A DNA stretch of 64,000 bases, taken from an uncultured Roseivirgaceae bacterium. Its GTDB lineage: Bacteria > Bacteroidota > Bacteroidia > Cytophagales > Cyclobacteriaceae. The notes under the pieces were generated by a model. It ran no database searches, had not been told where the DNA came from, and saw nothing but the letters and a program-made list of their open reading frames with translations. The translations under genes were made by a program, and so were the position numbers. Location: NCBI GenBank assembly GCA_964488585.1, contig CAZAWQ010000095.1:531-64530 (forward strand), read 5' to 3'. Below, one piece after another: positions 2,312 to 48,042 of the stretch; position 1 is the stretch's first letter; every line of letters starts with the position of its first letter.

Positions 2312-3145
2312 ATGAGTATTACCGCCCAAGATATTAACAAGCTAAGGAAGATGACCGGTGCCGGTATGATGGATTGTAAAAAAGCGCTTACCGAAGCAAA
2401 TGGTGATTTTGAAGTTGCCATTGACCTGTTGAGAAAGAAAGGGCAAAAAGTATCTGCTTCACGTGCAGATCGTGAGACCTCTGAAGGCTCTGTTTTTGTA
2501 AAAACTGATGCGAATGGCCATGAAGGGGTTTTGATCGCCCTGAATTGTGAAACGGATTTTGTGGCAAAAACCGAAAATTTCCAAACTCTGGGTGTTGAAA
2601 TATTAGCTCAAGCAGTATCTCAAAACCCCGGCAGTATTGATGAGTTATTGGCCCTGTCCTCAGGAGACTTGACCATAGGTGAAAAAGTTATAGATCTAAT
2701 AGGCAAGATTGGTGAGAAAATCGAAATCAGCGCCTACGAAAGATTGGAGGCCGATAAAATAGTTGCCTATATACATGCAGGCAACAAACTAGGAGTGTTG
2801 GTTGCTCTGAACGGAAGCAATGGTTCTGATGTTGACATTGCAGGAAGAGATGTTGCCATGCAGATTGCTGCCATGAACCCGGTAGCTGTCGACAAGGATC
2901 AGGTAGACACTACGGTGGTAGAAAGAGAGATGGCTATTGGCAGGGAGCAAGCCATTGCCGAAGGCAAGCCTGAAAATATCATTGACAAGATTGTCTCTGG
3001 TAAACTGAACAAATTTTATAAGGAGAATACTTTGTTGAATCAGACGTTTGTCAAAGACAATTCTCTGACAGTTTCCAGGTATCTCGAAACGGTGAAGCAA
3101 GGATTGACGGTTAAAGATTTCCGCCGGGTATCAATTAGTGGCTAG
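2312..3145 (+). CDS. tsf: Translation elongation factor Ts
   Basis: LRKMTGAGMMDCKKAL marks the UBA-like N-terminus of EF-Ts. The gene sits directly downstream of rpsB. Confidence 0.97.
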   Translation: MSITAQDINKLRKMTGAGMMDCKKALTEANGDFEVAIDLLRKKGQKVSASRADRETSEGSVFVKTDANGHEGVLIALNCETDFVAKTENFQTLGVEILAQAVSQNPGSIDELLALSSGDLTIGEKVIDLIGKIGEKIEISAYERLEADKIVAYIHAGNKLGVLVALNGSNGSDVDIAGRDVAMQIAAMNPVAVDKDQVDTTVVEREMAIGREQAIAEGKPENIIDKIVSGKLNKFYKENTLLNQTFVKDNSLTVSRYLETVKQGLTVKDFRRVSISG

Positions 3146-41290: not shown

Positions 41291-42004
41291 CTAAAATTTA
41301 GATAGTTCCTTTAAGGTAATCCTTCCTTCATATATGGCCTTCCCTACAATAACGCCGGCTACTCCACTAAACTTCAAGTCTCTTAAGTCCTGTATGCTAC
41401 TGACCCCTCCGCTGGCAATTATTGACAGTTGGGGATATGCTTTTACCAGCCATTTGTACAAACCAACTGCGGGCCCTTGCAATAACCCGTCCTTACTCAC
41501 ATCGGTACAAATGACCTGACGAATTCCTTTCTGGAAATAATAGTCCAGAAAGTCACTTAAGTTCCATTCGGATTGTTCCTGCCAGCCGCTAATAGCGATT
41601 TTCTCATCCCGAACATCCGCACCTAGAATGATTTTCCCTGCTCCAAATTCATTTAGCCAACCTTCAAATTGGTCAGGCTTTTTTACCGCGATACTACCAC
41701 CTGTAACCTGTTTGGCACCTGCATCAAATACTTTTAAGAGGTCGTCCCTGGATTGAACTCCTCCCCCGAAATCTATTTCAAGATTGGTATTGTTGGATAT
41801 TTTTTTTAATACCTCAAGGTTAATTACTTTTTTGGCTTTTGCTCCGTCCAGATCCACCAGGTGTAATCTTTTTATACCCGCATCCTGAAACTCCAAAGCC
41901 ATTTCCAATGGATTATCCCGGTATACGGTTTTTTGCTGATAATCACCCTTAGACAGTCGAACACATTTTCCTCCAATGACGTCTATAGCCGGTATTATGT
42001 CCAT
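41291..42004 (-). CDS. hisA: ProFAR isomerase
   Basis: IIPAID...GKCVRL..GD and HLVDLDGA motifs. Sits between hisH and hisF. Confidence 0.95.
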
Positions 42005-42005
42005 G

Positions 42006-42593
42006 TTACAGTTTTAAAAAGTTTGCAAGAATGGTCTGACCAGAATCACTACTTTTCTCAGGGTGAGCCTGGACTGCATAGTAATTATCCTTATGCAATG
42101 CCCCACTAAATGGGATAATATACTCTGTGGTCCCAATAGTTTCTACTCCAAGTTCTGCATAATAGCTATGTACATAATACAGATAGGGGTTTTCAAGTCC
42201 TGAGAATAGGGGACTTTCGTTGATCTTTAGACAATTCCAACCCATATGGGGCACTTTGTAGGTTCTCTTTTCAGTTTGAAACTTTTTTACCTGAAGGTCG
42301 AACATACCCAAACATTCGGTATCACCTTCCTCGCTGTAACGACACATAAGTTGTAAGCCTATACAAATTCCCAGGAATGGTTGATGTAGTGAGGTAAGAA
42401 CCTGGTCCAAGCCCTTAGCCCTTAAATATGCCATGGCACTTTTAGCCTCTCCTTGCCCAGGGAAAATGACCTTATCTGCGGACTTGATCTCTTGATGATC
42501 ATCAGTATGCAGTGGATCTACTCCCAGTCGCTGTAGTGCGTAAATCACTGATTGGACATTTCCAGCATTGTATTTTACAACTGCAATTTTCAT
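42006..42593 (-). CDS. hisH: Imidazole glycerol phosphate synthase, glutamine amidotransferase subunit
   Basis: Y.AGN..S........G, the GICIGLQL catalytic Cys and VPHMGWN. Confidence 0.95.
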   Translation of the reverse strand: MKIAVVKYNAGNVQSVIYALQRLGVDPLHTDDHQEIKSADKVIFPGQGEAKSAMAYLRAKGLDQVLTSLHQPFLGICIGLQLMCRYSEEGDTECLGMFDLQVKKFQTEKRTYKVPHMGWNCLKINESPLFSGLENPYLYYVHSYYAELGVETIGTTEYIIPFSGALHKDNYYAVQAHPEKSSDSGQTILANFLKL

Positions 42594-43684
42594 TATAAAA
42601 CCCCTTTGGTACTGGGTAGTTGGTTGTTATTAATATCCTGTCCAACAGCCATTTTTATTGACCTGGCAAAAGCCTTGAAAATTGCCTCAATTTTATGATG
42701 CTCATTTTTCCCTTCAGCCTTAATATTAAGATTACATTTTGCCGTGTCGGTGAAACTCTTAAAAAAATGGAAGAACATTTCGGTGGGCATACCACCAACC
42801 ATTTCTCTTTTGAACCCCGCATCCCATTCCAACCAGTTCCGTCCTCCGAAATCAATGGCTACCTGGGCCAGGCAGTCATCCATGGGAAGACAGTACCCAT
42901 ATCGTTCTATACCCCTTTTATCTCCCAGGGCTCTGTAGAAAGCCTCTCCCAGGGCCAACGCGGTGTCTTCGATGGTATGGTGTTCATCAACTTCAAGATC
43001 ACCTTTGACGGTTACCTTAAGATCCAGTTGACCGTGTTTCGCCAATTGATCCAACATGTGATCAAAAAAGCCAATACCTGTATGGTTCTTTGACAGCCCC
43101 TGTCCATTCAGACGAAGATCAATGGATATCTCTGTTTCGTTAGTATTTCTTTTTACCTGTACCTGGCGGTCGGTGCCTATTAGGAAGGTGAATATTTCAC
43201 TCCAGTGAGCGGTGCACAACACCGTATCCGGTTCTATGTTTTTACCTATGAAAATTGCCTGAGCACCTAGGTTCTTCGCCAGTTGAATGTCAGATGCCCG
43301 GTCTCCAATTACAAATGAATTAGCCAGATCATATGACCCATCCAGGAATCTGGTGAGCATTGCCGTACCCGGTTTTCGGGTATCTGCTCCTTCCGACTCA
43401 AAAGTACGATCAATAAGTATGTCATTAAATTGTACTCCAGCACCTTCCAGTGTCTCTAACATCTTGTTTTGAGCTGGCCAAAACTGGTCTTCAGGAAAAG
43501 AAGAAGTACCCAGGCCATCCTGATTGGTTACCATAATCAGCTCATATGATAGTCTTTTGGATATATGGTGTAAGGCAACTAATGATCCGGGAAGAAATGA
43601 GAGCTTTTCAAGTGAATCAACCTGTTCATCAGGAGGTTCCTGTATGATGGTACCATCCCTGTCTATGAATAAAACCTTTTTCAT
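42593..43684 (-). CDS. hisB: Bifunctional histidinol-phosphatase / imidazoleglycerol-phosphate dehydratase
   Basis: N-terminal HAD motif LFIDRDGT. The C-terminal IGPD motifs are GIGFFDHML and HH..E..FKA.ARS. Confidence 0.95.
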
Positions 43685-44742
43685 AATTCAATTGTGTTTA
43701 GAATGTCCAGCAATCTTTGATTCTCTTCTTCGGTACCTACGGTAATCCTCAAACAGCCTTCACAAAGTTGGATCCTGCTGCGGTCTCGAACCACTATCTG
43801 ATTATCGATTAAGATATTGAATATAGTGGTTGCTTGTTTCACTTTAACTAATAGGAAATTGGCTTCAGAGGGATAAACTTGTTCTACGATTTTTAACTGA
43901 GAAAGCTCATTTCTCAGCCACTCCCGGCCATTTTGTACACGTGCCACCACCATATTGATCTCATGGGCATCTTCAATAGCGGTCAAAGCATGCATTTGAG
44001 TGAGTTGATTTACGTTATACGGTGGTTTGACTCTGTTGAGATAATACATTATTTCCTTTGAGGTATAACCCACACCTAATCGAATACCAGCAAGCCCCCA
44101 GGCCTTCGAAAAGGTCTGTATAACTACTAGATTAGCATGTTCTGTACACTGCTCAATAAAACCAGGGTCTTTTGCAAAATCAATATATGCTTCATCTATG
44201 ACTATAATGCCTCCAAATTCGTCCAGGATTTTTTGCACTTGAGACTTTCCCAACAAGTTGCCTGTCGGATTATTCGGAGAACAAAGGAAGATGATCTTTG
44301 AATGTTCGCTCACTGTCCGAAGCACCTCGTCAGCATTGAGCTCAAACAACTCTGACAATGGAACTTCATTTACTGCCACATTATTGATAGCTGCCGCCAC
44401 CTTATACATTCCATAGGTAGGTGTAGTGGTAATGATTTCGTTCCTTCCTGGTTCACAAAATATTCTTATGAGCAGATCTATGATTTCGTCACTGCCATTC
44501 CCCAAAAATATGCTATCCACAAGGTGGCCTTTTACTTCTGATAGCTTTTCTTTGATGGCCCTTTGATAAGGATCAGGGTATCTGTTGAGCATCTGATTAT
44601 TGTCAGCCATGCCTATGGAACCCCAGGCATTTTCATTTGCGTCTAGTAAGGTAAGTCCATAGTCCATATATTGCTCTCTTGCCGAAGTATATGGTCGCAA
44701 AGTCTTTATGTTATCACGTACTAACTGATCTATAGCTGTCAT
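43681..44742 (-). CDS. hisC: Histidinol-phosphate aminotransferase
   Basis: LDANEN, NRYPDP, NPNNPTG and the [13 protein letters not shown]-lysine motif. Confidence 0.95.
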
Positions 44743-44744
44743 GA

Positions 44745-46019
44745 CTATACTTTTGTGGATTTACGTCGTATAGATACCGCTCTTTTGTGGGCCTCCAGTC
44801 CTTCTGCTGCGGCCATAACCTCCACGGTGTCCCCCACCTGCTCAAGTCCCTCCCGGGTAATTTCCTGAAAAGTGATCTTTTTTAGGAAAGTATCCAGAGA
44901 AACACCTGCGTACATCCTGGCGTTACCATTGGTTGGTAAGGTGTGGTTAGTACCGGAGGCGTAATCACCGGCTGATTCCGGGGTATATGCCCCCAGGAAC
45001 ACCGAACCCGCATTAATCACCTTATCCGCCCACTGATGGGCGTTTTCTAGGTTTAAAATAAGATGTTCGGGAGCGTAGGTGTTTAAAAAGTCCATAGCCG
45101 TATTGAGCTCCTCGAAAAGCACAAATTTACTTTGATCCAGGGCTTCTTGAGCAATTTCTTTCCTGGGAAGAATCTCAAGTTGATCAATAATTGCAGCGTT
45201 TACCTTTTTGATCAGTTCCGGTGAATCAGTAGCCAATATCACCTGGCTGTCCGGACCGTGTTCAGCTTGTGACAACAGATCAGCTGCAATAAACTCAGGA
45301 TTTGCCTGATCATCAGCTAGGATAGCTACTTCAGAGGGCCCAGCCGGGAAATCGATGGCCACCATAGTGCTTACCAACTTTTTGGCCAAGGTCACATACT
45401 GGTTGCCCGGCCCCAGAATTTTATATACTTTAGGCACAGTTTCAGTACCGTATGCCATTGCAGCAATTGCCTGGGCCCCTCCAACCAGATATAATCTCTC
45501 GATCTTCAGCAGCTGGGCGGTATAAATGATAGCAGGGTGGATGCCACCATCAGCCTGAGGTGGAGTACACACCACTAGCTCCTTACATCCTGCCAACCGG
45601 GCTGGAATGGCCAGCATCAGCAGGGTCGAAAACAGTGGTGCAGATCCGCCGGGTATATATAGTCCGACACTTTCTATCGGAGTGGATTTTCTACAGCATT
45701 TGACCCCGGGCATGGTCTCAATCCAAGTGGTTTCTTCTTTTTGACTTTGGTGAAACGTCTGAATATTTTGAAAAGCTGTTTGAATGGCTTTTTTTAGTTC
45801 ACCTGAAATGGTCGGCTCACTCCGCTGAATTGTGAAAGTTAACGACAATCCACTTACACCGTCAAATTTTTCCGTATAGTCAATAAGTGCCTGATCGCCC
45901 TCCCGACGAACCTTGGCAATAATTTCCTGAACAACCCCTTCCAATTCAATTTCGGTTTCTATGGGTCTGCTAATTAATGAGTCCCAGGAACTTCTCATAG
46001 GATTGCTAATTATCTGCAT
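44745..46019 (-). CDS. hisD: Histidinol dehydrogenase
   Basis: [19 protein letters not shown] and [10 protein letters not shown] are canonical HisD motifs. Confidence 0.96.
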
Positions 46020-46021
46020 AG

Positions 46022-46879
46022 CTATAGCACCATCTTTTCAATTGGAATAACTAATATTCCCTCAGCCCCAGCTTCCCTGAGGTTTTCGATCACTTCCCAG
46101 AAATCATCTTCCTTGACCACTGAGTGCAACGAGCTCCACCCTTCCTGGGCTAAAGGTAATACTGTAGGACTACGCATACCTGGCAATAGCTCAGTAATTT
46201 TGGAAATGGACTCATTTGGGGCATTTAATAGTATGTACTTGTTGCTGTTAGCAGCCTGCACTGCGTTGATTCTAAAGAGCAATTGATCCAATATCTTGCG
46301 CTTAGTCCCCCTGAGATCAGGGCGGACAACCAAAACCGCCTCAGACTGCAAGATAATTTCAACCTCGGTTAAGCCATTACTCACCAAAGTACTTCCTGTG
46401 CTTACAATATCACATATCGCTGCTGCCAATCCGATACTGGGAGCGATTTCTACACTGCCGGAGATCTCATGAATGTCAGCGGAAACCCCTTTCTTTGATA
46501 AATATGAGGACAAAATATTTGGGTAAGAAGTCGCAATACTAAGACCCGCTAAACTTTCAATACCTTGATAGTTGAATTCTTTAGGAACTGCAATGGAAAG
46601 GCGACATTTAGAGAATCTCAATTTTTTAACTACCTCCAGATCATCTGTCTTCTCCAACAGTACATTTTCCCCCACTATACCAACATCAGCTACTTGATCT
46701 GAGACGTAGCCAGGGATGTCATCATCTCTTAGGTACAGGAATTCAATGGGAAAGTTAAAAGCCTGGGCTTTCAGCCTTGCGATTCGTGTAGGAAAAGTGA
46801 TTCCACATTCTTTTATTAGTTTTAAGGAAGAATCACTGAGTCTTCCAGATTTCTGGACAGCCAGTTTTAAAGTATTCAC
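46022..46879 (-). CDS. hisG: ATP phosphoribosyltransferase (long form)
   Basis: LK.A.QKSGRLS..S..L...CGI at the N-terminus and the DIVSTGSTL motif. At 285 aa it includes the C-terminal regulatory domain. GTG start. Confidence 0.95.
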   Translation of the reverse strand: MNTLKLAVQKSGRLSDSSLKLIKECGITFPTRIARLKAQAFNFPIEFLYLRDDDIPGYVSDQVADVGIVGENVLLEKTDDLEVVKKLRFSKCRLSIAVPKEFNYQGIESLAGLSIATSYPNILSSYLSKKGVSADIHEISGSVEIAPSIGLAAAICDIVSTGSTLVSNGLTEVEIILQSEAVLVVRPDLRGTKRKILDQLLFRINAVQAANSNKYILLNAPNESISKITELLPGMRSPTVLPLAQEGWSSLHSVVKEDDFWEVIENLREAGAEGILVIPIEKMVL

Positions 46880-46934
46880 AATGATTTGATTAGAGTCCTA
46901 AAGAGAAGTTTTGAATATCTATAATTATAGTTAC

Positions 46935-47018
46935 CTAACAGCAATGATGAAAATGGTGGTCCCATAGGTGCGGCTTTGAAAAAGCGAATGCTGGGCGATA
47001 TGTTGGTGTTATAGACAT
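46935..47018 (-). CDS. Candidate His-rich leader peptide of the his operon
   Basis: The 27-codon ORF reads MSITPTYRPAFAFSKPHLWDHHFHHCC, with 5 His in the last 11 residues. It ends 55 nt upstream of the hisG GTG on the same strand. It is below the ORF-track size cutoff and I translated it by hand. Confidence 0.45.
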   Translation of the reverse strand: MSITPTYRPAFAFSKPHLWDHHFHHCC

Positions 47019-47100
47019 TTCACTACAAGTATAGGACATTTTAATTTTTCAGAAAAGGATAACTATATTTAATAGCCAAAAGCGAATAACTGTAATCCCT

Positions 47101-48042
47101 ATGTCCGTTTCGTCCTCAAGTTCAGAAAATCGCTCTATTGTGGTTAAAAAACTAGCCCAAGAAGCTGGATTTGATTTTTGTGGGATTTCCAAAGCAGAAT
47201 TTCTTGAAGATCAGGTGGCTCCCATGGAACAATGGCTAAAAGGAGGGAAACAGGGGAAAATGAGTTATATGGAGCGATATTTCGACAAGAGATTGGATCC
47301 AACTCTTTTGGTTCCCGGCGCCAAGTCAATCATTACTTTGTTATATAATCACTATCCGCCCAAAGAATTACCAAAAGACCACAACTTTCATATTGCAAAA
47401 TATGCATATGGTCAGGACTATCATCAGGTTATAAAAAATAGGATGCGAAATTTATCGGAAAAAATGAAGGCCGCACTGGGTGATATTCAAGGAAGAGCAT
47501 TTGTAGATTCGGCTCCAGTAATGGAAAGGGTTTGGGCCCAACGTAGTGGAGCAGGATGGATTGGCAAAAACAGCTTGTTGCTTACCAGAGGTGGCGGTAG
47601 TTTCTATTTTATTGCAGAACTTATTACAGACCTGGAACTTAATCCAGATGGACCTATAGCAGATTATTGTGGAACCTGTACCCGATGTATTGATAGCTGT
47701 CCAACCGATGCCATAACACCCTATCAAGTGGACGGTTCCAAATGCATCTCCTACTTCACTATTGAATTAAAAGACGAAATACCTGAGACGGTGAAAGGCA
47801 AATTTGAAAACTGGATATTCGGCTGCGATATATGTCAGGATGTGTGCCCCTGGAATAGATTCGCTAAGCCCCACCAAGAAAATGAATTTTTGCCGGTTGA
47901 TGATCTATTCCATATGGATCAGAAAAAATGGAAAGAACTTAAAGAGACATCTTATAGCAAATTGTTTAAAGGATCAGCGATAAAACGCAGCAATTTCAAG
48001 GGTTTAACCCGTAATATTCGGTTTGTTAGCGATGCGAATTAA
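47101..48042 (+). CDS. queG: tRNA epoxyqueuosine(34) reductase
   Basis: GFDFCGI near the N-terminus, two 4Fe-4S motifs (CGTCTRCIDSCPT and CDICQDVCPWN) and a C-terminal HEAT-like tail. Confidence 0.92.
   Translation: MSVSSSSSENRSIVVKKLAQEAGFDFCGISKAEFLEDQVAPMEQWLKGGKQGKMSYMERYFDKRLDPTLLVPGAKSIITLLYNHYPPKELPKDHNFHIAKYAYGQDYHQVIKNRMRNLSEKMKAALGDIQGRAFVDSAPVMERVWAQRSGAGWIGKNSLLLTRGGGSFYFIAELITDLELNPDGPIADYCGTCTRCIDSCPTDAITPYQVDGSKCISYFTIELKDEIPETVKGKFENWIFGCDICQDVCPWNRFAKPHQENEFLPVDDLFHMDQKKWKELKETSYSKLFKGSAIKRSNFKGLTRNIRFVSDAN

Follow-up and report, generated by a model that had tools for sequence, protein, structure and literature searches.

Does the short, histidine-rich open reading frame (ORF) that lies directly upstream of hisG in this genome sense histidine, and, if so, how would it act on the operon behind it when no terminator is found between the two? 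The locus is part of a stretch of 64,000 nucleotides (nt), called here the window, from an uncultured Roseivirgaceae bacterium of the order Cytophagales, phylum Bacteroidota (GenBank assembly GCA_964488585.1, contig CAZAWQ010000095.1, positions 531 to 64,530 of the forward strand). Enterobacteria supplied the textbook account of leader-peptide attenuation. For Bacteroidota, a phylum that lacks Shine-Dalgarno-led initiation and has a different type of promoter, the mechanism is known from no more than hints in sequences and transcriptomes. The explanation that we favor, with moderate confidence, is that the ORF is a histidine-sensing leader, that a helix (P1) between its start codon and a segment just past its stop would close it on itself, and that its output would be premature transcription termination without a canonical terminator, with the termination factor Rho as the likeliest effector.

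The ORF and its most constrained parts are as follows.

46935..47018, minus strand: leader ORF, 27 codons plus TAG, MSITPTYRPAFAFSKPHLWDHHFHHCC; kept open at a length of exactly 27 codons in all 11 genus sequences

46944..46958, minus strand: His-codon cluster CAC CAT TTT CAT CAT (codons 21-25), the presumed stalling site, read from the sequence

46935..46968, minus strand: block CCTATGGGACCACCATTTTCATCATTGCTGTTAG, encoding LWDHHFHHCC plus the stop, almost invariant across the genus alignment

An earlier note on this DNA had described a 27-codon leader ORF at 47018-46935 upstream of hisG, with five His among its last 11 residues and 55 nt between its stop and the GTG of hisG, and the coordinates, translation and both counts were reproduced from the sequence. 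The ATG lies at 47018-47016 and the TAG at 46937-46935; the His codons are CAC at 46970-46968 and 46958-46956 and CAT at 46955-46953, 46949-46947 and 46946-46944; and the interval from the stop to the hisG GTG (46879) is exactly 55 nt, 46934-46880. The HHFHH motif falls at the same positions (21-25) in the 27-codon leaders of Algoriphagus, Belliella, and Indibacter. A longer form of 34 codons is possible from an in-frame ATG at 47039 that appears in the list of ORFs; since the relative L019 has TTG in place of this ATG, which would also fall inside the predicted promoter, between its -33 and -7 elements, we retained the 27-codon form. Taken by itself the ORF is only mildly unusual, as 1.4% of 220-nt pieces drawn at random from this genome have at least four His within 8 codons, and it is therefore the comparative data that carry the case.

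Upstream regions of hisG were gathered from 30 unnamed relatives, 80 named records, and 24 further family members; individual loci are given L numbers below. These relatives share ancestry, and the counts that follow overstate their independence. The best named relatives of the window's HisG are Cytophagales metagenome-assembled genomes (MAGs), with 78-85% identity, and the HisG proteins of Marivirga, Algoriphagus, Belliella, and Pontibacter have about 67% identity. In 77 of 116 distinct Cytophagales regions (duplicates removed) the sense strand carries a His-rich short ORF, and in a separate count 0 of 109 antisense strands did so, which argues that the ORF did not arise by chance. Counted as at least 4 His in 8 codons, it was seen on 68 of 109 sense strands, on none of the 109 antisense strands, and in one of 109 shuffles. 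All seven same-genus loci have it, with the C terminus LWDHHFHHC(C/Y), as do all three sister-genus loci (MSITRNISFIELRSHRFHHHHCH, MSIINNISRITAMATQYHCHHHGK, and MSMIKHNNSRTKLMAHHHHHHHSL) and most other Cytophagales loci; in all of these groups it ends 50-190 nt upstream of hisG. No ORF that was His-rich to this degree was found at L008, L009, L010, L017, L020, L022, and L026, mostly from other families of the order, nor at some others, including the named Rhodocytophaga locus L110.

A pattern scan of metagenomes yielded four extra loci, all near L001, L002, or L005 and adding no new covariation; with the seven genus loci they make up a genus set of 11 sequences. The length of exactly 27 codons is kept in all 11, and the other two frames mostly contain stops. 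Codons 1-17 have 35 variable columns, distributed 13/9/13 over the three codon positions, and codons 18-27 have only 7. Over the whole ORF the distribution is 14/12/16, and because it is so even, selection appears to act on translation and on the His block, not on the N-terminal peptide. This is the pattern that would be expected of a leader ORF that needs to be translated and to present its His codons, and not of a functional peptide. A short ORF with a His run is conserved upstream of hisG in the relatives and its flanks and N-terminal half vary, so the refuting outcome that the earlier note had named, no such conserved ORF in relatives, did not occur. Within the block some residues change: HPDHH or HPGHH replaces HHFHH in L005 and L138, two members of the genus, which leaves only three His in the C-terminal block, and L137 has HHYHH. 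From these variants, the Phe codon and one His codon appear to be dispensable. On the comparative evidence, we regard the ORF as very probably a genuine histidine-sensing leader peptide gene, comparable to hisL.

The DNA before the leader ATG has the features of a promoter.

47050..47056, minus strand: -33-like element TTTTCTG, 16 nt 5' of the -7 box; kept in the genus and sister-genus alignments and assigned from the Bacteroidota consensus

47026..47033, minus strand: -7 box TATACTTG, 7 nt before the leader ATG; fits the Bacteroidota sigma-A consensus TAnnTTTG

47018..47022, minus strand: predicted transcription start, about 47020, giving a 5' untranslated region (UTR) of 0-4 nt; from the spacing in Flavobacterium psychrophilum

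The block TATACTTGTAGTGAAATG, which contains the -7 box, is invariant in the genus alignment, and the sister genus has TTTTTTG as its -33-like element. A -7-type box stands 3-12 nt before the leader ATG in 66 of the 77 His-rich leaders. The consensus TAnnTTTG is the one quoted in PMC9723704, the supplement of which gives for the hisG promoter of F. psychrophilum a mapped start 6 nt after the G of the -7 box. This box-to-start spacing, applied to the window, puts the predicted start near position 47020, with 2 nt ahead of the AUG, and the leader mRNA would probably be all but leaderless. Few mRNAs in this phylum have so short a 5' UTR: 5.5% as given for F. psychrophilum (PMC9723704) and, for those of <10 nt, 3.7% as given for Bacteroides thetaiotaomicron (PMC7366714).

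Folding of the leader RNA places the start codon in a long-range helix, P1, with a segment downstream of the stop codon; the principal RNA elements are listed here.

47009..47019, minus strand: 5' strand of P1, AAUGUCUAUAA, which includes the leader start codon; seen in the minimum free energy (MFE) and centroid folds, the RNAalifold consensus, and covariation

46914..46924, minus strand: 3' strand of P1, UUAUAGAUAUU, 10-20 nt past the leader stop; seen in the folds, consensus, and covariation

46973..46985, minus strand: inner hairpin P3, GCUUU-UUC-AAAGC; 74% of alignment cells paired, weakly supported

46992..47003, minus strand: ACATATCGCCCA box, C-rich and predicted to be single stranded; conserved as nucleotides

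46880..46913, minus strand: 34-nt spacer from P1 to the hisG GTG, rich in A, U, and C, poor in G, and predicted unpaired by folding

In the RNAalifold consensus of the seven genus sequences, AUGUCUAUA, with the start codon, pairs with UAUAGAUAU, 12-20 nt past the stop. The same helix, of 11 bp, appears in both the MFE and centroid structures of the window RNA (-21.7 kcal/mol, z = -2.08, with 6 of 200 shuffles folding as well). Its two strands change together: GUCUGC/GCAGAC in L003, AUGUCUA/UAGACAU in L004, AUGACUGUC/GACAAUCAU in L006, and GUCUAUG/CGUAGAC in L113. On alignment A1, of 10 sequences, where MAFFT misaligns L111 to the detriment of the helix, 85% of P1 cells are paired and 4 of 10 pairs have changes on both sides; for P1, P2, and P3 together, 78.5% of cells are paired, compared to 25-40% when the partner is slid by 1-3 columns. 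The support for the inner helices P2 to P4 is weak. G-U pairs are tolerated in P1, which fits sense RNA rather than a DNA repeat or an antisense RNA. The earlier note had listed an AT-rich palindrome, CTATAATTATAG, and a weak GCTTT/AAAGC stem within the leader as the structures present. The stem is there, at 46985-46973. The palindrome is also there, at 46930-46919, though it is not conserved; it overlaps the 5' part of the P1 3' strand, and its own 3' half belongs to the covarying helix, which the note had not seen.

P1-type pairing extends beyond the genus. Against shuffled 5' segments, the duplex has z <= -2.6 in all 12 genus and sister-genus rows and also in L038, L069, L076, L080, L083, and L087, with L073 at -2.5. 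Pairing of each leader 5' end with its own post-stop tail averages -8.9 kcal/mol, compared to -5.6 with the tails of other loci; among short-spacer leaders, 11 of 29 pair better with their own tail than with 95% of foreign ones, versus 1 of 37 among long-spacer leaders. In the short poly-His leaders the helix has a different sequence in each lineage (AUGAAUUAC/GUAAUUCAU, AUGAAAGAAGC/GCUUCUUUACAU, and AUGAAUUGGAA/UUCCAAUUUCAU). It is absent from the long-spacer leaders that end in HHFHHSS (own tails -5.75, foreign -6.3 kcal/mol), a subset of which appears to pair the start codon with the first His codons instead (AUGAACAG/CUGUUCAU), beating 95% of foreign partners in 5 of 35 cases. Predicted sequestration of the leader start codon by a downstream segment is thus a recurrent theme. 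One poly-His leader in this group, that of L038, comes from a record titled as a Rickettsiales MAG; its hisG is of Cytophagales type (68% identity) and the leader is nearly identical in design to that of the Marinoscillum MAG L069, so the taxonomic label looks wrong.

Leaders of this kind appear to be widespread in Cytophagales, with at least three architectures. Class A, which includes the window's genus, its sister genus, and many poly-His leaders of 12-17 codons, has spacers of 50-90 nt and no terminator. Class B leaders have about 27-32 codons, end in HHFHHSS (Algoriphagus, Belliella, Indibacter, and Pontibacter) or HHSSF (Marivirga), and lie about 100-130 nt before hisG; they have a hairpin at the stop codon, UUCCUCC-UAA-GGAGGAA, followed by another C-rich box and another hairpin, which covaries, and their U tracts are poor. 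Class C (L024 and L027 to L030) consists of attenuators of the classical kind, in which a U tract accompanies a GC-rich hairpin. The window's leader has its length, HHFHH at codons 21-25, and the ACATATCGCC box in common with class B and yet has none of the class B downstream modules.

We note several further features of these leaders. In class B (L012, L014, L043, L049, L062, L066, L070, L089, L091, and others), it is the two Ser codons and the stop that form UUCCUCC-UAA-GGAGGAA, and this hairpin includes GGAGG, a perfect Shine-Dalgarno-like sequence of a kind to which the ribosomes of this phylum do not respond. The hisG start of class B loci is preceded by a conserved CGTAnnTTGCnnnCATG that resembles a second -7 box. 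The box at 46992-47003 in the window belongs to an ACATATC(GCC) element that occurs about 16-25 nt after the AUG both in his leaders and in the trp leader L139, in different reading frames; class B his leaders (L012, L062, L091, and others) have a second copy of it downstream of the stop-codon hairpin.

The trp operon of the same genome provides an internal comparison. Upstream of trpE there is a classical Trp-Trp leader, MNSTLHISIWWHFRDYYNR (contig C94, upstream of 11968; L139, about 2903-2998, minus strand), which has a canonical terminator, AACCCGCTGTTTAGCGGGTTTTTT, and, 9 nt ahead of its ATG, a -7-like box; against the Rfam Trp_leader model it scores below threshold (31.9 bits versus a gathering score of 41, E = 0.001). 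Since this genome has a classical leader and terminator at trp, the missing terminator at his is a real difference. No clear leader was found in the upstream regions of leuA and ilvB. A genome-wide motif hunt for near-leaderless leaders was too noisy, although it recovered the his leader.

A terminator was sought at the his leader in several ways. The terminator scan gave no terminator-like site on the minus strand of the window, and no intrinsic terminator appeared in the folds of 10 genus and sister-genus sequences, in agreement with the earlier failure to find a GC-rich terminator and U tract between the leader stop and hisG. Rfam searches at permissive E values with the window and ten relatives' loci returned chance matches only, the enterobacterial His_leader model (RF00514) did not match the window even at E values up to 10, and the peptide matched no Pfam and no NCBIfam family. 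Nor did we find a mutually exclusive terminator and antiterminator: P1 is kept in the consensus fold of the free leader and in those with a ribosome placed over the His codons or at the stop. Of the alternative structures with covariation that the earlier note suggested looking for, folding gave a covarying helix and no alternative to it under ribosome constraints.

Some other pairings were considered and set aside. The 7-bp UUUCCAU/AUGGAAA pairing of the Algoriphagus type is invariant and does not rise above shuffles. Pairing of the His block with hisG codons about 280 nt downstream (LRDDDIPGY, GAUGAUGA) is a by-product of a conserved protein motif and is not among the best pairings in L005 and L006.

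From these elements we propose the following course of events. A sigma-A promoter would start the transcript 0-4 nt before the leader AUG, and a ribosome would load on this near-leaderless AUG during RNA synthesis; its speed over His codons 21, 22, 24, and 25 would report the charging of tRNA-His. Once transcribed, the segment 10-20 nt past the stop would pair with the start-codon region to form P1, with the leader ORF looped out and the AUG hidden. Because P1 would hide the AUG after about 105 nt had been made, sensing would probably be confined to the first, cotranscriptional (pioneer) round of translation, and single-round sensing in turn favors a transcriptional output. With plentiful histidine, transcription would terminate before or early in hisG; with the ribosome stalled, it would read through. 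That the output is premature termination of any kind is a view toward which we lean only slightly. Rho would be the likeliest effector because there is no canonical intrinsic terminator, and we name it specifically only in a tentative way. It could load on the C-rich, G-poor leader RNA after the ribosome departs and be blocked by a ribosome stalled at codons 21-25, with the C-rich 5' half on one side of it and the polymerase on the other. Across the genus, leader and spacer together have a C-over-G skew of 0.29-0.38, which ranks among the top 1-4% of genome windows, with most of the leader predicted to be folded. A rho gene is present, as two adjacent TIGR00767 matches of 449.6 and 196.9 bits (contig C368:33889-35503, minus strand). 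The two pieces overlap slightly (model positions 2-300 and 292-414), and the split may reflect a frameshift or assembly error in the draft.

Several points weigh against this reading. No switch that would tie stalling to output is visible in the sequence, because constrained folding gives no alternative structure: P1 persists with a ribosome on the His codons or the stop and is lost only when the 5' end is covered, and a ribosome stalled at codons 21-25 of the 27-codon leader covers neither strand of P1. The covariation of P1 comes from 10 related sequences of two genera and from lineage-specific helices, and relatedness inflates the counts. The C-over-G skew is not extreme and follows in part from the His codons (CAC/CAT) and from the low G content of Bacteroidota 5' regions; the rho match is split in two pieces, neither above the cutoff alone; and the U-rich stretch after P1 is poorer in the window than in its relatives. 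The transcription start, the stalling, and the regulation are predictions from sequence: one RNA sequencing run contained 4% of the sampled words and gave nothing that mapped to the region, and a DNA sequencing run shows only that the leader sequence is present.

Four other explanations can be weighed against the same evidence. P1 might itself be the stem of a long-range intrinsic terminator, with the leader ORF as a giant loop and the U-rich stretch as the release site; one ribosome or several queued ones, standing in the loop or on the start codon, would mask the terminator by blocking its stem and allow read-through. The short poly-His leaders are where this has most to offer: in several, the P1 3' strand is U rich or is directly followed by a U run, as in L087, which pairs GAAAAAGACA with UGUCUUUUUUC (L088 and L044 are similar), and the His codons of L087-like leaders (codons 5-14) would put a stalled ribosome directly on the 5' strand. 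A U-rich stretch (UUUAAUUUUU, CUUAUUUAAUUU) also follows P1 in five of seven genus loci (L003 to L006 and L019) and in the sister locus L111. In the window, however, the tail UCAAAACUUCUC has 5 U in 12, and sister loci L112 and L113 have CAGCUCAAC; the stem is A-U rich, with two or three G-C pairs and a loop of about 85 nt; the terminator scan registers nothing there; and since a single stall would leave both strands free, a three-ribosome queue must be assumed. Such a terminator suits L087-like leaders well and the window poorly, and we consider it rather unlikely. Control of mRNA stability is a more doubtful proposition, and we rate it improbable. P1 would pair the extreme 5' end, stalled or queued ribosomes would shield the leader, and starvation would lengthen the life of the his mRNA, for which there is a precedent in the stall-dependent stabilization established for ermC and ermA in Bacillus. 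The position of P1, starting 1-2 nt from the predicted 5' end, and the lack of a terminator or structural switch are in keeping with this, but P1 should form in both fed and starved cells, leaving no obvious difference between the two states, and the RNase J family was not found with TIGR00649 in this 88%-complete genome.

The earlier note had proposed translational control, in which the hisG start is occluded until a stall opens it or is reached by coupling or reinitiation. The missing terminator, a weak GTG start only 55 nt past the leader stop, and a phylum described as being without Shine-Dalgarno-led initiation (PMC6847099) might all suggest it. The folds speak otherwise. Partition-function folding under ribosome constraints predicts a hisG start region that is mostly unpaired (42-70%) in each of 10 sequences and in every ribosome state, unchanged by the position of the ribosome, which gives no support to occlusion; as an anti-start element, the His block pairs with the hisG start no better than shuffles do in the window's genus (z from +1.1 to -1.9) and in most groups; and with reinitiation, starvation would reduce hisG output, the reverse of the effect expected. 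This makes translational control quite improbable. Very improbable indeed is a fourth reading, in which the ORF would have arisen by chance or be a relic, without regulating anything in this genus, or would encode a functional His/Cys-rich metal-binding micropeptide. The window does lack the expression platform of its relatives (stop-codon hairpin, second box, second hairpin, or terminator), and the C terminus HHFHHCC resembles a metal-binding motif. Yet ORF length, His block, promoter box, and P1 are all kept across two genera, with hisG proteins 78-89% identical and nearby intergenic DNA diverging; the His-rich ORF tracks hisG across the order in otherwise unrelated peptides (poly-His, HHFHHSS, and HHSSF); and the CC is replaced by CY, SS, SL, or CA, with no match to a peptide family.

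The proposed Rho-dependent attenuator has partial counterparts among known systems. Like enterobacterial hisL (RF00514), it is a short ORF with clustered His codons before hisG, with stalling at scarce charged tRNA-His as the presumed signal; unlike hisL, which has seven His codons in a row, the window has four or five interrupted ones and neither a terminator nor an antiterminator pairing. Rho-dependent leader attenuation operates in tnaC of Escherichia coli and in mgtL, mgtP, and corL of Salmonella. The proposal would resemble these in that ribosome position gates Rho on a C-rich leader RNA with no intrinsic terminator. The tnaC ribosome stalls at its own stop codon in response to free tryptophan, and the mgt leaders switch between two stem-loops, a switch for which nothing is predicted in the window. 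Nearer by, the classical his attenuators of the family (L024 and L027 to L030) also have a helix enclosing the His codons, and they and the trp leader of the same genome share the promoter-proximal leader ORF and the ACATATC box. The family attenuators add a GC-rich hairpin and U tract (GGGGCTTGTC...GACAAGCCCTTTTTT) and the trp leader has its terminator, whereas the window's his leader has neither.

The closest published case is F. psychrophilum, for which Guerin et al. (2021, PMC9723704, Table S7) list a hisG leader-peptide attenuation element with a mapped start and, according to the authors, no Rfam match. The likeness lies in the phylum, in a short His-rich sense ORF (19 amino acids, MSLNQLHHHHFHICSQAKC) upstream of hisG, and in a sigma-A TAnnTTTG promoter. 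That leader differs in its 14-nt 5' UTR and in its GC-rich hairpin, CCCGTTTGAG...CAAACGGG, about 183 nt before hisG, whereas the window's leader would be nearly leaderless, has no hairpin, ends 55 nt before hisG, and is closed by P1. The earlier statement that no curated equivalent was known for Bacteroidota holds for Rfam, Pfam, and NCBIfam models, although His-rich hisG leaders had been published for F. psychrophilum (PMC9723704). For tryptophan, PMC2864571 lists Bacteroid-trp (RF01692) among cis-regulatory motifs of Bacteroidetes. A literature search, with subscription journals outside its scope, found no paper on Cytophagales his leaders or on a helix between a start codon and a post-stop segment. 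An abstract by Vitreschak et al. from 2004 reportedly mentions attenuators in Bacteroidetes/Chlorobi. What is new here is the covarying start-codon/post-stop helix P1; His leaders of hisG were already known in F. psychrophilum.

The window's architecture is one in which neither a terminator nor a predicted RNA switch accompanies the leader, and a self-closing helix is all that is seen. Should the output prove to be termination that depends on Rho or is masked by ribosomes, this would be a simple system for transcription-translation coupling in a phylum without Shine-Dalgarno-led initiation. It is conceivable, though we would not press the point, that many Cytophagales use such a minimal, terminator-less attenuator, in which a leaderless ORF has its start codon paired downstream, either after the stop (short-spacer leaders) or at the first His codons (HHFHHSS leaders), and the pioneer ribosome is the antiterminator. 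The ribosome would act as a roadblock to Rho or mask a long-range stem, and an antiterminator RNA would be unnecessary. If true, this would be a third design of amino acid attenuation beside the classical four-segment attenuator and the T-box. Because Rfam, Pfam, and NCBIfam all miss them, these leaders are unannotated in thousands of genomes.

Downstream, the leader precedes a tightly packed operon in the order hisGDCBHA, with hisG first; all six genes scored above the cutoffs of NCBIfam equivalog models, and the divergent neighbor was assigned by NCBIfam.

46022..46879, minus strand: hisG, ATP phosphoribosyltransferase, long form, GTG start

44745-46019, minus strand: hisD

43681-44742, minus strand: hisC

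42593-43684, minus strand: hisB

42006-42593, minus strand: hisH

41291-42004, minus strand: hisA

47101..48042, plus strand: queG, tRNA epoxyqueuosine reductase, the divergent neighbor; context, outside the element

The queG gene is divergent to the his leader in the window's genus (L002 to L006 and L019), in the sister genus (L111 to L113), and in L117, and this adjacency was not seen at the other loci examined. Queuosine is formed on four tRNAs, those for His, Asn, Asp, and Tyr. If that set of tRNAs holds here, queG, as a tuner of His-codon decoding, would stand back to back with a sensor built of His codons.

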